From an uncultured delta proteobacterium (lineage in GTDB: Bacteria; Myxococcota_A; Polyangia; Polyangiales; Polyangiaceae), in assembly GCA_963731595.1 (NCBI GenBank), contig CAVSWE010000003.1, positions 236,948-300,947 on the forward strand: 64,000 nt of DNA, in the 5' to 3' direction. The notes below the pieces were generated by a model. It was given only the letters and a program-made list of their open reading frames with translations. It was not told the origin of the DNA and did not search any database. This document shows, in pieces, positions 1-64,000 of the stretch (position 1 is the stretch's first letter; each line of letters begins with the position of its first letter). Position numbers and translations under genes: made by a program.

Positions 1-3000
1 GCGCGAGGATCACGACCACCATCGGCACGTCGTCACCTGCCGCAATCAGTTGCCGCGCCATCTCGAAGGCGACAAACGCTCCGTTGCAGAAGCCACCGAA
101 GCAATACGGACCGTGCGGCCGGATTGCCCGAAGGGCGCGAAGGCGATCGGCTGCCATCGCCTCAATGGTGTCGGGAATGGCCGAGTCGTCGAGTGTGTGC
201 GGCTTCACGACGAGCACGGGCTGGTCGGACCCGAGGGCCTGCGCAAGAGACCGGCTGTAAAACCCGCCGCCGTGCAGGTCGCCATGCAGAAATACGAGCG
301 GTGGCCGGTTTCCGTTATTGTTGATCGTCACGATCGGCGCGTCGAGGTCCGTTGGGTGCTCCCGAAGCAGCCGAGCCAATCCAGCAATTGTGTCTTCCAT
401 AAAAAGTGCTGCAAGCGGCGCGGTGAGACCGGTCTCGCGCTCGATTTCATCCAAAAATTGTGCCGCCAGCAGCGAATGGCCGCCAAGCTCGAAAAAATGA
501 TCGAAGACCCCGATTCCATCGACTCCGAGCAGACGCTCGCAGATGCCTACAAGCACTTGTTCGAACATATCGCGTGGCGCAACGCGAACGGCGGCAGGCG
601 CCGCATCGGGTTCACTGACGGTTGGCAGCGCGCGCCGGTCGATCTTGCCGTTCGCGTCGAGTGGCAGCGACTTCAGCCAGACGATCGATGCGGGGAGCAT
701 GTATTCCGGCAGCAGCGGCTTGAGGTCATTCCACAGGTTGGCGGGCGGTGCCCCGGAACTCGCGGCTGCCACCACGTAGGCAACCAATCGCCGTGTGTCG
801 GTTGTCTCGCCGCGCACCACGACCACCGCGTCGCGCACTTGCGGCAGCCGTGCAATCGCGGCCTCGACTTCCCCGAGCTCGATGCGATGGCCGCGGATCT
901 TGACCTGCCGATCCAGTCGGCCGAGGAATTCGATTGCGCCATCCGCGCGGTAGCGGACGCGATCGCCGCTGCGATAGAGCCTGGCGTTGGGATCATCGGT
1001 AAACGGGTTCTGGACAAAACGCTGGGCCGTCAACTCGGGCGCGTTGAGGTACCCGGCGGCAAGCCCGGGTCCGCCGATATAAAGCTCCCCTGGCACCCCG
1101 ACCGGCACCGGTTCGCCCTCCGGGCCCATCCAATATGTAGACCTCGGTATTCGCGATCGGCCGACCGATCGGGATGGTGATCGCATCGGTCGGCGCGGCG
1201 TGCACTTCGTGCCACGTTGCAAACGTCGTCGTCTCCGTTGGTCCGTAGACGTGCAGCAGGCGCGCAGTGGTGCCGCGTCCAGCGGCTCTCACCCAGCGAG
1301 GCTCCACCGCTTTTTTCGCCGCCGAAAAGCACAGTATGGCAACCGCGAAACACGTCCGGTGCGTGGCGCGCCATCTGGTTGAACAGCGCTGTCGTCAGGA
1401 ACAGCGTCGTAATTCCCCGCGTTCTCCAACATCGCCACGAACGCTCGCGGTGACAACACGACCATGCGCGGAACGATGACCACACGCCCGCCGTTGACGA
1501 GTGCGCCCCAGATTTCGAACGTTGCGGCATCAAAGGCCGGATTGGCAGCGTGGGCGAGCGCATCGGTTGCATCGATATGCACGTAGTCCGTACCGCACGT
1601 CAGGCGCACAATGGCCCGGTGCGGAGTCAGCACGCCCTTCGGCGTGCCGGACGTACCCGACGTGTACATGATGTATGCGAGCTGCGACGACGATTCCGCA
1701 TGATCGTGATTGTGCGTCGGCTGCGCCGCGATCACGGAGGCGTCGCGATCGACGCATAGGACCCGGTCCCCGGTCACCGGGACCCTTGGAAGCAGAGAGG
1801 TCGCGGTGACGAGCAGTGACACGTCGGCATCGCCGAGCATGAACACAAGTCTCTCTGCGGGTAGCTCGGGATCGAGTGGCACATATGCGCCGCCAGCCTT
1901 CAGGATACCCAGCTTGGCGATGATAAGCTCCGCGCTGCGCTCGAGGCAGAGACCGATCCTCGGCGCCAAGCCCGCCGCCCGCTGGCGCAGCAGGTGCGCA
2001 AGTTGATTGGCGCGCGCATTGAGTTCGCCGTAGGTGACTACGCGCTCGCCATCGATCACCGCCGTCGCTCCCGGCGTCCGTGCGGCAACGGCCTCGACCA
2101 GGCGATGCACGCAGGTCGCCTCGGGATAAGGCGCTGCGGTCCGGTTCCATGCCACGAGCAGGCGTTCGCGCTCAGCCGCGCCCTGCAGCGGCAAACGGTC
2201 GATCGTTTGCCCGGGCTCGGCCACTATCGAGCCAAGCAGCGTTCGATAGTGGTCCACCATGCGCTCGATCGTCGCGGCATCGAATAGCGCGGTCGCATAA
2301 TTGACCTCACAGCGCAGTCCGTCGGCCATCTCGCTCAGCCTAAACGACAAGTCCAATTCCGAGGTTGGGCTGTCCGTAAAGCCACTTCTCGACGTTTCGA
2401 TGCCTGCAAAATTCCACTCGACAAACGATCGGTTCACCAACGTGAACAGCACCTGGAACAACGGATTGCGCGACGGGTCGCGCCTGGGGGCGGCCTGCTC
2501 GACCAGTTTTTCGAAAGGGAGATCCTGGTGCGCGTAAGCATCGAGCGCGGTCCGCCGGACGCGCGCGAGAAGCGCCGCAAATGTGGGCGCGCCGCTCAAG
2601 TCAACGCGCAGTACAAGCGTGTTCACGAAAAAACCGATCAGCTGCTCGAACTCCGGGCGCGTCCGGCCGGAGGTCGGTACCCCGACCGCGACGTCATCCT
2701 GACCGGAATAACGATGAAGCAGCACGGTGAACGCCGCAAGCAGCGTCATGAACAGCGTCGCGCCTTCGCGACGACCGAGTTCGCGCAATTGGCGCGTCAG
2801 CGTCGCGTCGATTTCGAAGCTCAGCCACGCGCCACGCGAATCGGCCTGCGCCGGTCGCGCCCTGTCCGCTGGCAGGTCCTGCACCGGCAACTCGGCGAGC
2901 ACCGGTTTCCAGTAAGCGAGCTGCTGCTCGAGGGCACCATCGCCTTGCAGGTACTCGCGCTGCCACACGGCGTAGTCCGCATACTGTAGTGGCAGATTCG

Positions 3001-3449
3001 GGAGAGGTGACGGCGCGTTGGCATGGCATGCGTTGTACAGCGCTGAAAGCTCGCGCCCGAGCAGGACAGACGACCGGCGGTCGGTCACGATGTGGTGCAG
3101 CGTCAGCACAAACCAGTGCTCGTCGTCTGACAGCCGCAACAGGCTTGCGCGCAGTAGCGGGCCGCGCGCCAGTTCGAATGGGGTGTTCACCGAAATCCGC
3201 CGCCTGCCGTTCGGCCTCGGCTACCCGTTCGGCTGCGGGCAGCGCGCGAAAGTCCCGGAACTCGAGATCGACGTGCAACTCCGGCGCAATGACCTGCACC
3301 GGCACGCCCTGCTCGACGCCGATGTGCGTGCGCAGTACCTCGTGGCGCGCGACAACGCCATTGAGCGCGTGATGCAATGCAGCCACGTTGAGCGCGCCGA
3401 TCATGCGCAGCCGTTTCGACTCGTTGTAGACGGATCGGTCGGCCGCCAT
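1..3449 (-). CDS. Non-ribosomal peptide synthetase, single module C-A-T-TE; TE domain truncated by the window edge; reading frame interrupted at least 4 times
   Basis: Minus-strand translation gives C-domain motifs (MIGALNVAALHHALNGVVARHEVLRT.. then HHIVTDRRS near nt 3095) and adenylation motifs LAYIMYTSGTSGTPKGV (A3, ~1660), FDAATFE (A4, ~1534), YGPTETT (A5, ~1250), GELYIGGPGLAAGYL/ARLYRSGD (A7/A8, ~1075-965). PCP core is FDHFFELGGHSLLAAQ (~500-455) and TE begins EHPTDLDAPIVTI..LVFLHGDLHGGGFY..GPYCFGGFCNGAFVAFEMARQL (330-1). Frame changes occur near 3180, 1450, 1300 and 1085. The plus-strand ORF 50..1180 is antisense noise. Confidence 0.85.
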
Positions 3450-62881: not shown

Positions 62882-64000
62882 CCGTGCCGATCCGGCGCAG
62901 GATCGCTTCGGCAGTGGGCCCGGAGCGGCGAGCCATGCTTTCGCGTTCCAGTTCGTGGCTCACCACGTCCGCGTTCAGGTCCAGAAAGGTAACCTGCTCC
63001 AGTTCGTCACGCTCGGCATCTTCGAATAATCGCCTCAGTGACGCCCGCGTGATCGCGCGCCCGCCAAGGCCGGCGATGACCGTGTAGCCGTTGAGTGCGA
63101 TGCCGGACAAGGACTTGCGCACCCCGTCGGAAACAATGCCGCCCAGGCCCACGGCCAGACATTTTTCCAGCACCACCACGCGCTTTGCATGCTGTAGCGC
63201 GTCGCGCAGAACGCCGAGCGGAAATGGACGGAAGGAACAAATGGAAACCGAACCGATCCGTGAACCGTCGGCACGCATTGCATCGACGACTTCCTGCACC
63301 GTGCCGTTGAGCGAACCGAGCGCGACCACGATCGTCTCGGCGTCTTCGGTGCGGTAGGGGCGGATAAGCCCGCCGGAGTCGCGGCCGAATTGTTTCTGGA
63401 ATGCAGTGGCCAGCTCCGGAATCAATCCCAGCGCGCGCAGCTGCTTGTGATGCGACAGGTAGCGCACTTCGGTGAATGCTTCTGGCCCGACCATCGCGCC
63501 GATGCTCACCGGATCGGCCGGGTCAAGCATTTGCCGCGGCTCGTAGCGCGGCAGGAACGCGTCGACCTCCTGCTGCGTCGGCACGTCGACGCGGTCGTAG
63601 GCATGGGTGAGGATGAAGCCGTCCATGCACACCATCACCGGGCAGGACAGCACTTCGGCGAGGCGGAAGGCCTGAATGTGCAGATCGAGCGCTTCCTGGT
63701 TGGTTTCCGCGTAGAGCTGGATCCAGCCGGCGTCGCGCATCGACATGCTATCGGAGTGATCATTCCAGATATTGATCGGTGCCCCGATCGCCCGGTTGCC
63801 GATGGTCATGACGATCGGCAGCCCGAGCCCGGCGGCGTTGTACACGGCCTCGGCCATGAACAGCAAGCCTTGGCTGCTGGTTGCCGTATAGGTGCGCACG
63901 CCCGCCGCCGAAGCGCCGATGGCTACCGACAGCGCGGCGAATTCCGATTCGACGTTGATAAACTCACAGCCGGCGAGCTCTTCGGTCTTGACCATCTCGC
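62862..64000 (-). CDS. korA: 2-oxoacid:ferredoxin/acceptor oxidoreductase alpha subunit (PorA/KorA), 5' part outside the window
   Basis: ..GASAAGVRTYTATSSQGLLFMAEAVYNAAGLGLPIVMTIGNRAIGAPINIWNDHSD..; ORF runs off the window end. Confidence 0.8.
   Translation of the reverse strand, partial: EMVKTEELAGCEFINVESEFAALSVAIGASAAGVRTYTATSSQGLLFMAEAVYNAAGLGLPIVMTIGNRAIGAPINIWNDHSDSMSMRDAGWIQLYAETNQEALDLHIQAFRLAEVLSCPVMVCMDGFILTHAYDRVDVPTQQEVDAFLPRYEPRQMLDPADPVSIGAMVGPEAFTEVRYLSHHKQLRALGLIPELATAFQKQFGRDSGGLIRPYRTEDAETIVVALGSLNGTVQEVVDAMRADGSRIGSVSICSFRPFPLGVLRDALQHAKRVVVLEKCLAVGLGGIVSDGVRKSLSGIALNGYTVIAGLGGRAITRASLRRLFEDAERDELEQVTFLDLNADVVSHELERESMARRSGPTAEAILRRIGTVASRIG

Follow-up and report, generated by a model that had tools for sequence, protein, structure and literature searches.

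Assemblies built from long reads (Nanopore or PacBio CLR) retain residual insertions and deletions (indels), which are measured by IDEEL and addressed by proovframe, Merfin, or polishing with short reads. Such consensus indels cause frameshifted gene calls (PMC9262707; Merfin preprint), and where regions are collapsed, read mapping is reported to produce heterozygous calls that are false (Merfin preprint). The Microflora Danica long-read catalogue, which is Nanopore-only and was made with metaFlye and one round of Medaka, comes with its authors' own report of error signs in low-coverage metagenome-assembled genomes (MAGs) (PMC12313526). Here we analyzed a 64,000-nt stretch of an uncultured delta proteobacterium (assembly GCA_963731595.1, contig CAVSWE010000003.1, positions 236,948 to 300,947; hereafter the window, numbered from 1 to 64000) in which the reading frames of many long conserved genes, among them the complex I genes nuoE to nuoN, are broken. 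Judged against the same genes in near-identical assemblies, these breaks are in all likelihood consensus errors from assembly or polishing, not mutations. Many of them take the form of a tandem copy of two strain alleles at a single site.

The window resembles the long-read cases in several ways. The breaks are mostly one base long and fall in conserved genes, the pieces of these genes still match their families, and the breaks are missing from other assemblies. Furthermore, the contig is long and its public gene calls are fragmentary, a 94-aa piece of hutU being one of them. However, classic long-read errors are homopolymer deletions, whereas in the window insertions are dominant, homopolymers are under-represented, and the affected sites are strain variable, often with both alleles present. 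The window also resembles collapsed haplotypes and metagenome microdiversity, since contigs of a sister assembly (ERZ25039546) overlap at one locus and the error patches differ among the contigs. What distinguishes it from the published collapsed-haplotype cases is the tandem insertion of both alleles, of which we found no published description. Finally, the number of frameshifted conserved genes is reminiscent of Mycobacterium leprae and of recently host-restricted symbionts. Unlike decay of the M. leprae type, the window is without relaxed selection, nonsense codons, deletion bias, or shared lesions, and a near-identical conspecific is intact.

The nearest genomes are MAGs labeled Casimicrobiaceae or "uncultured beta proteobacterium," whose NuoD is at most 90% identical to that of the window, and many of the closest relatives in this search were Microflora Danica MAGs. 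By these relatives, the organism would be a Casimicrobiaceae-like betaproteobacterium of soil or sediment. A NuoD 100% identical (rounded) to that of the window was found on contig_34773 of ENA assembly ERZ25039546. This contig (loci L081, L084, and L167) and contig_25596 (L166) served as conspecific references for positions 20452 to 64000, where their nucleotide identity to the window is 96.5 to 97.3%. Also used were the Logan contigs L082 and L085 (run ERR12035937) and L083 (run ERR10755938), as well as intact open reading frames (ORFs) from two short-read MAGs (L001 and L003) and one Nanopore MAG (L011). The window's NuoD (P0121) is itself on record on a 345,914-bp NCBI/ENA contig, presumably the same as the contig of equal length that carries the 94-aa hutU fragment (P0123). 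The presence of this fragment in the database means that the frame breaks belong to the public deposit and were not made afterwards.

Comparison with a close relative, which the earlier note had proposed as a check, showed that the 97%-identical conspecific contigs have all of the compared genes intact. On contig_34773, the genes are all full length, including those for LctP (558 aa), the D-lactate dehydrogenase (963 aa), NuoE to NuoN, the porin (783 aa), the decaheme cytochrome (339 aa), and the malic enzyme (556 aa). The ORFs are also intact in L001, L003, and L011. None of contig_34773, contig_25596, contig_125703, contig_171026, or the three Logan contigs carries any of the window indels that it covers, and the Logan contigs side with the intact contig at all shared gap sites. 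Several genes are 99.8 to 100% identical to their conspecific copies, and some of the broken ones reach 99.8%. The lctP and D-lactate dehydrogenase DNA is, indels apart, 99.3 to 99.8% identical to that of the relative, the dehydrogenase having 19 mismatches in 2892 nt. The malic enzyme, in which four frame changes were read directly and the Pfam match runs from profile position 13 to 135 and then from 135 to 182 across frames, has intact homologues of 556 aa at 95 to 96% identity.

The distribution of indels among strains was equally telling. A five-way conspecific alignment of positions 53800 to 60200 contained 284 parsimony-informative single-nucleotide polymorphism (SNP) columns, i.e., columns shared by at least two strains, but not one of its 21 coding 1-nt indels was shared. 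Nine of these were private to the window, eight to L166, and four to L169, with none in L167 or L168. With about 40% of the SNP columns shared, an outcome in which all 21 indels are private has a probability of about 2e-5 (hand arithmetic). Sister contigs from the same or neighboring ENA assemblies have fragmented patches of their own, such as NuoN split into 214 and 84 aa in L166 and POR/GltD pieces in L168. Each assembly is thus broken at different places, as expected of errors and unlike inherited lesions. In contrast, 1- to 4-nt indels in the intergenic region between the cNMP-binding and Fe-S/CCG genes (57822 to 57934) are common to strain groups, which means that they are inherited and therefore real.

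The frame disruptions are extensive and exceed the number given in the earlier note. They had been described as present in almost every long conserved gene, and this was borne out by the conspecific comparison, where 21 of the 36 genes between 20452 and 64000 were affected; among the 17 genes that are 1 kb or longer, only two escaped. When the intact ORFs of the three related MAGs were used in tblastn, NuoE, F, G, H, I, J, L, and M and the D-lactate dehydrogenase were each spread over two to five frames in collinear order. Frameshift-aware protein-to-DNA alignment gave zero frame changes for the intact controls NuoD and LutB. Every member of nuoE to nuoN proved to be broken, as had been claimed, with 3 (nuoE), 6 (F), 8 (G), 1 (H), 3 (I), 7 (J), 2 (K), 12 (L), 2 (M), and 1 (N) events. 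The other named genes were broken too, with one event each in lctP and the kinase-Usp fusion, two in the hemerythrin gene, three in the CBS-domain gene, four each in the malic enzyme and D-lactate dehydrogenase genes, nine in the decaheme cytochrome gene, and about 53 in the porin gene. At 63% G+C, frame switches could not be counted from a frame plot of third-position G+C (GC3) or from an ORF list filtered by GC3, since both were too noisy.

Relative to the conspecific contig, there were 1072 mismatches and 140 gap events between 20452 and 55183. The block from 31500 to 31800 is truly divergent, with real multi-base indels, and was omitted from the indel set (n = 112) for this region. In this set, 109 events (97%) were exactly 1 nt, and insertions in the window outnumbered deletions by 79 to 33 (70% insertions). 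The inserted bases were mostly G (32) and C (25), with 10 T and 10 A. About 17 further events occurred between 55184 and 60339 and none between 60340 and 64000, for a total of about 130 events. Fifteen of the 36 genes had no indels, including nuoA to nuoD, those for LutA, LutC, Crp, and the histidine kinase and response regulator, and others. The features of the part covered by conspecific references are as follows.

20452: left limit of collinearity with contig_34773; the alignment to L084 begins here
20461 to 21877, minus strand: Ser/Thr kinase-Usp gene with one extra nucleotide at 20762; the L084 copy is intact (471 aa)
within 22982 to 24279: CBS-domain gene with a deletion at 23255 and insertions at 23292 and 23326; intact (148 aa) in L084
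within 22982 to 24279: hemerythrin gene with insertions at 23892 and 24227; intact (192 aa) in L084
24505 to 29365: block without genic indels, at up to 48 SNPs/kb; the sole event is an intergenic deletion at 28778
29496 to 32906, minus strand: MtrB/PioB-type porin (about 53 events) and decaheme cytochrome (9 events) genes, from alignment to L084 and the Logan contig L085
within 36994 to 41574, minus strand: lctP with an insertion at 37546 and 3 mismatches in 1677 nt; the Lactate_perm profile match ends at 348/522
within 36994 to 41574, minus strand: FAD/Fe-S D-lactate dehydrogenase gene with a deletion at 39439 and insertions at 39813, 39899, and 40574
42480 to 45152, plus strand: nuoA to nuoD, no indels
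45159 to 53093, plus strand: nuoE to nuoM cluster with 45 indel events, at least 36 of them single-base insertions
54423 to 55809, plus strand: nuoN with one inserted G (55190) that is missing from L166, L167, L168, and L169
55745 to 57802, minus strand: gene for an Fe-S/CCG protein (684 aa in relatives) with indels at 57218 to 57226, 57656, and 57794
58472 to 60144, minus strand: NAD-malic enzyme gene with a deletion at 58801 and insertions at 59040, 59492, and 59860
60211 to 61840, minus strand: GltD-like Fe-S flavoprotein gene with one insertion at 60339

The part of the window to the left of these features is missing from contig_34773, where L084 instead has a PilJ/GAF/HisKA_3 kinase gene upstream. 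This left 20 kb is either a flexible island or the product of an assembly join. The disrupted features that it holds are as follows.

1289 to 3449, minus strand: nonribosomal peptide synthetase (NRPS) condensation and adenylation fragment with a frame change near 3190
4073 to 4765, minus strand: O-methyltransferase gene with an apparent in-frame TAA (4397 to 4399) and two compensating indels
5200 to 6198, plus strand: IS110-family transposase gene with one frame change near 5300 to 5390
6626 to 8228, plus strand: hutU (urocanase) with 9 to 16 frame changes, both +1 and -1, and no in-frame stops
19083 to 20270, minus strand: NnrS gene without a usable start; the profile match begins at 43/371, at residue 4

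One rival explanation applies to this left region. Flexible islands often hold decayed genes, and it may be that most breaks in the window are errors while some of those in the left 20 kb (the IS110 and NRPS breaks and the NnrS start) are real pseudogenes of such an island. Two observations are compatible with this. First, the region is missing from the conspecific contig and contains an insertion sequence element, NRPS fragments, and uneven G+C. Second, no close reference was found for it. A homologue search with the N-terminal hutU fragment returned only short fragments of 85% identity or less and the window's own 94-aa piece, and a metagenome scan with FGase (hutG) returned only relatives of 67% identity or less, which served as protein references for hutU and not for base-level comparison. 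The breaks themselves are present in the coordinates of the Pfam profiles. The NRPS condensation profile is matched at positions 22 to 101 in the ORF at 2694 to 3449 and at 108 to 456 in a different frame, in the ORF at 1289 to 3190; the match to the AMP-binding domain breaks off at 254/384 near 1289 to 1420. Likewise, DEDD_Tnp_IS110 begins at profile position 48/155 in the ORF at 5353 to 6198, and the N-terminal 'NIGADVAKDEIVAA' lies in another frame. The NnrS start, from the profile coordinates, is probably in another frame upstream. The earlier note had placed its IS110 and NRPS calls under the same error caveat as the rest of the window; the frame changes stood, and they may be either errors or true pseudogenes.

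Two genes in the same region argue against this mixed origin, which we regard as rather unlikely. The first is hutU, which shows the same signature in an extreme form. Its Urocanase_N and Urocanase_C domains (Pfam) are in separate ORFs, and where the earlier note had counted at least five frame changes, frameshift-aware alignment to three distant hutU references gave between 9 (harsh penalty) and 16 (normal penalty), all of one base, at about 79% amino acid identity and with no stops. The second is the O-methyltransferase gene. Its TAA had been taken for a substitution. Instead, two compensating indels put about 13 codons around it out of frame, and in this stretch the neighboring frame reads VDVRIGVAL, which is typical of the family. 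The frame-hopped protein scores 116.8 bits against PF01596 compared to 98.5 bits for the read-through, a difference that implies the two indels. This stop therefore falls fully under the error caveat. LutB offers a similar case, in which an insertion is offset by a deletion at a distance of 4 nt (34742 to 34747), so that the frame is kept and only one or two residues change. Compensated pairs like those in LutB and the O-methyltransferase escape checks based on ORF length.

A second alternative, which we consider unlikely, is that the breaks are plain low-coverage long-read errors, homopolymeric or random, in which strain mixture played no part. There is some evidence for such errors. A background of 0.36 indels/kb is present even in 1-kb bins with five or fewer SNPs; the deletions at 23255, 24314, and 39439 fall in runs of five to six identical bases; and the insertions at 55190, 59040, and 59860 have no known adjoining polymorphism. 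However, the distribution of the indels is not that of a uniform process. A rate of roughly one indel per 300 to 600 nt had been claimed. The mean, about one per 340 nt, agrees with this, but the spread is patchy rather than even, with a dispersion index of 19.7. The chief clusters are in the porin and cytochrome genes (29.7 to 33.3 kb; the densest in the part covered by conspecific references), in nuoE to nuoM (45.16 to 53.09 kb), and at 57.2 to 57.9 kb. In bins with more than five SNPs, the indel density rises to 5.5/kb, and per kb it tracks SNP density with a Spearman rho of 0.75 (p = 4e-9). The patchiness is also apparent from the block at 24505 to 29365, which is SNP rich and yet has no indels in its genes (those for Crp, a small cytochrome, a response regulator, a histidine kinase, a cytochrome c, and a cNMP-binding protein).

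The sequence context of the indels also does not fit a homopolymer error mode, which the earlier note had assumed and had suggested looking for. Among the insertions, 55 of 77 had no identical neighboring base. Among the deletions, 18 of 32 were at run length 1, compared to a background of 56%, and only three were in runs of five to six bases. Across nuoE to nuoM, an alignment that included L081 and four relatives of greater distance contained 24 single-base insertions found in the window only. Only 8 of these were of the homopolymer type, fewer than the 13.1 expected by chance. Instead, the extra base was an allele carried by relatives at the adjacent column in 19 of the 24 (null, 5.3 ± 2.0; maximum of 13 in 5000 trials), and in 18 of the 24 both window bases were alleles of one column (null, 5.0). 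Two-thirds of the insertions (16/24) were at third codon positions. A good example is position 53093, where the window reads CCT-C-G-GGC and the relatives read either CCT-G-GGC or CCT-C-GGC. Other tandem-allele sites in nuoE to nuoM are 46743 (A+C, the C allele being private to the near-identical relative), 47540 (T+G), 48470 (C+G), and 50600 (G+A), 53093 itself being C+G. The same was seen among conspecifics at 57794 (G+C, the alleles of two strain groups), 57875 (C+A), and 59492 (C+T, both strain alleles).

We infer that these tandem alleles stem from a strain-mixed consensus. Reads from at least two co-occurring strains would have been piled onto one contig, and the consensus step may then have kept both bases where the strains disagreed and, less often, dropped one. 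A mixture of strains would account for the errors piling up where strains differ. The remainder, including the three deletions in 5- to 6-base homopolymers, would belong to a lower background of ordinary long-read errors. Very probably, the contig was assembled from long reads in a pipeline such as Nanopore/metaFlye/Medaka. It may belong to the Microflora Danica project or a similar one, to judge by its length and by the sources and contig names of its relatives.

A third possibility is a genuine, recent, and massive pseudogenization in a degenerating genome. Two observations could be taken to favor it, namely that the breaks exist in the deposited sequence and that coding indels are not depleted, as would be the case under relaxed selection (3.25/kb in coding versus 3.09/kb in non-coding DNA). 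The substitutions tell otherwise. The ratio of non-synonymous to synonymous substitution rates (dN/dS) was about 0.12 over LutC to NuoN, with 418 synonymous and 150 non-synonymous changes, mostly at third positions, and no premature stops were present in these genes after removal of the indels. In a second gene set dN/dS was 0.29, a value raised by the fast-evolving porin and cytochrome. Of the 24 substitutions private to the window, 54% were at third positions; 14 were synonymous and 10 were not, numbers too small to tell them apart from the shared SNPs. Pseudogene decay in bacteria is biased to deletions of varied length, but here nearly all indels are single bases and most are insertions. 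Nor are any of them shared between strains, and a conspecific at 97% identity is intact, with some of the broken genes differing from its copies by as little as 0.2%. Also, we know of no mutational process that would generate insertions copying neighboring alleles. Finally, the sequence is 63% G+C and densely coding, and complex I would be lost. Pseudogenization on this scale is thus very improbable, and the view of the earlier note, that these are sequence errors, is upheld by intact, near-identical, independent assemblies and by purifying selection that acts on the substitutions and not on the indels. More generally, it is very improbable that the breaks are true mutations and that most long genes of the lineage, those of complex I among them, were lost very recently or are recoded. 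Programmed ribosomal frameshifting or other recoding, for which only the conservation of protein segments in each frame can be cited, is so improbable as to be negligible, since it would have to operate at more than 130 sites, up to 16 in one gene and some in non-coding DNA, at positions not conserved in relatives whose orthologues are all single-frame.

Some points weigh against our interpretation that the breaks are consensus errors from a mixture of strains. First, the left 20 kb is without a close reference, and its IS110, NRPS, and NnrS breaks could be genuine. Second, the both-alleles signature was examined in nuoE to nuoM and at 53.8 to 60.2 kb only, and no known polymorphism lies beside about 5 of the 24 insertions in the former or 4 to 5 of the 8 in the latter (e.g., 55190, 59040, and 59860). 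Third, the histidine kinase gene (26700 to 27920) has 64 substitutions but no indels, which makes SNP density against one relative an imperfect proxy. Fourth, the depletion expected at the 1|2 codon boundary was not seen (30/73). Gap placement by BLAST is arbitrary beside mismatches, which makes this result neutral rather than contrary, and the allele test on the multiple sequence alignment replaced this codon-boundary test. Fifth, a literature search found no paper describing a tandem insertion of both alleles in a mixed-strain consensus. Finally, the evidence consists of assembled sequences alone, so that the platform, coverage, and strain mixture of the source sample are seen indirectly.

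If the breaks are consensus errors, the organism is expected to have intact genes for complex I, for lactate utilization, for the malic enzyme, for urocanase (hutU), and for the cytochrome-porin module. Every pseudogene-like call in the window is accordingly to be discounted, including those for complex I, lctP, the D-lactate dehydrogenase, the malic enzyme, hutU, the cytochrome-porin pair, kinase-Usp, and the O-methyltransferase. As an assembly artifact, the feature is of low biological interest, but contigs of this kind seed public databases with fragments of conserved proteins, such as the 94-aa hutU piece, and inflate apparent gene loss in surveys of MAGs. Filters that consider only homopolymers would miss the pattern. 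A check for tandem alleles, or for patches of indels that track strain polymorphism, would catch it. We think it more likely than not that the tandem both-alleles insertion marks a systematic and diagnosable way in which the consensus of a long-read metagenome fails when strains are mixed. If so, these errors could be detected and corrected without a reference, and they record the alleles of a co-occurring strain.

ERZ25039546 holds three contigs of the malic-enzyme/nuoN locus (contig_34773, contig_25596, and contig_171026) at 92 to 98% identity, which means that strains co-occurred in that sister sample, which is not the window's own. L166 and L167 are contig ends, both within this locus, and the contigs have the appearance of strain branches that the assembly graph left unresolved. 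L166 and L169 (the latter on contig_171026) have private 1-nt indels and fragmented NuoN calls, and L169 also has a 929-aa SdhA-SdhB fusion call.

Divergence between the window and contig_34773 (33906 to 60211) is a sharp mosaic. Blocks of about 0 to 0.4% divergence lie at 36 to 45.1 kb and 53.1 to 57 kb, and blocks of 4 to 11% lie at 45.2 to 48.5 kb, 50 to 53 kb, and 30 to 33 kb, with one boundary at the nuoD/nuoE junction near 45159. Either the strains have recombined or the consensus switches from one haplotype to another.

With respect to gene content, the window is 62.8% G+C and its coding density is high. Pfam matches place the NRPS fragment, the O-methyltransferase, the IS110 transposase, hutU and hutG, several transferases, and NnrS in the first 20.4 kb, which also holds an acyltransferase, a sulfotransferase, an MscS-like piece, and a methyltransferase. 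In the middle are the kinase-Usp fusion, the CBS and hemerythrin proteins, regulators, and the decaheme cytochrome with its MtrB/PioB porin, together with LutABC, lctP, and the FAD/Fe-S D-lactate dehydrogenase. The cytochrome and porin form an outer-membrane electron transfer module that adjoins small cytochromes, Crp/cNMP-binding regulators, and a two-component system. Both genes diverge between strains much faster than their neighbors, with non-synonymous changes about equal to or above synonymous ones. The right part contains nuoA to nuoN, the Fe-S/CCG protein, the NAD-malic enzyme, the GltD-like flavoprotein, and a 2-oxoacid:ferredoxin oxidoreductase. In this lineage, NuoG has a length of only about 480 aa (46921 to 48372 in the window; 13010 to 14452 in L081), and nuoH follows directly. 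Its domains are Fer2_4, NADH-G_4Fe-4S_3, Fer4_Nqo3, and a weak Molybdop_Fe4S4, with no large molybdopterin-like C-terminal domain listed. The ORF extent matches in L001 and L011, and the short NuoG therefore characterizes the clade and does not stem from an error.

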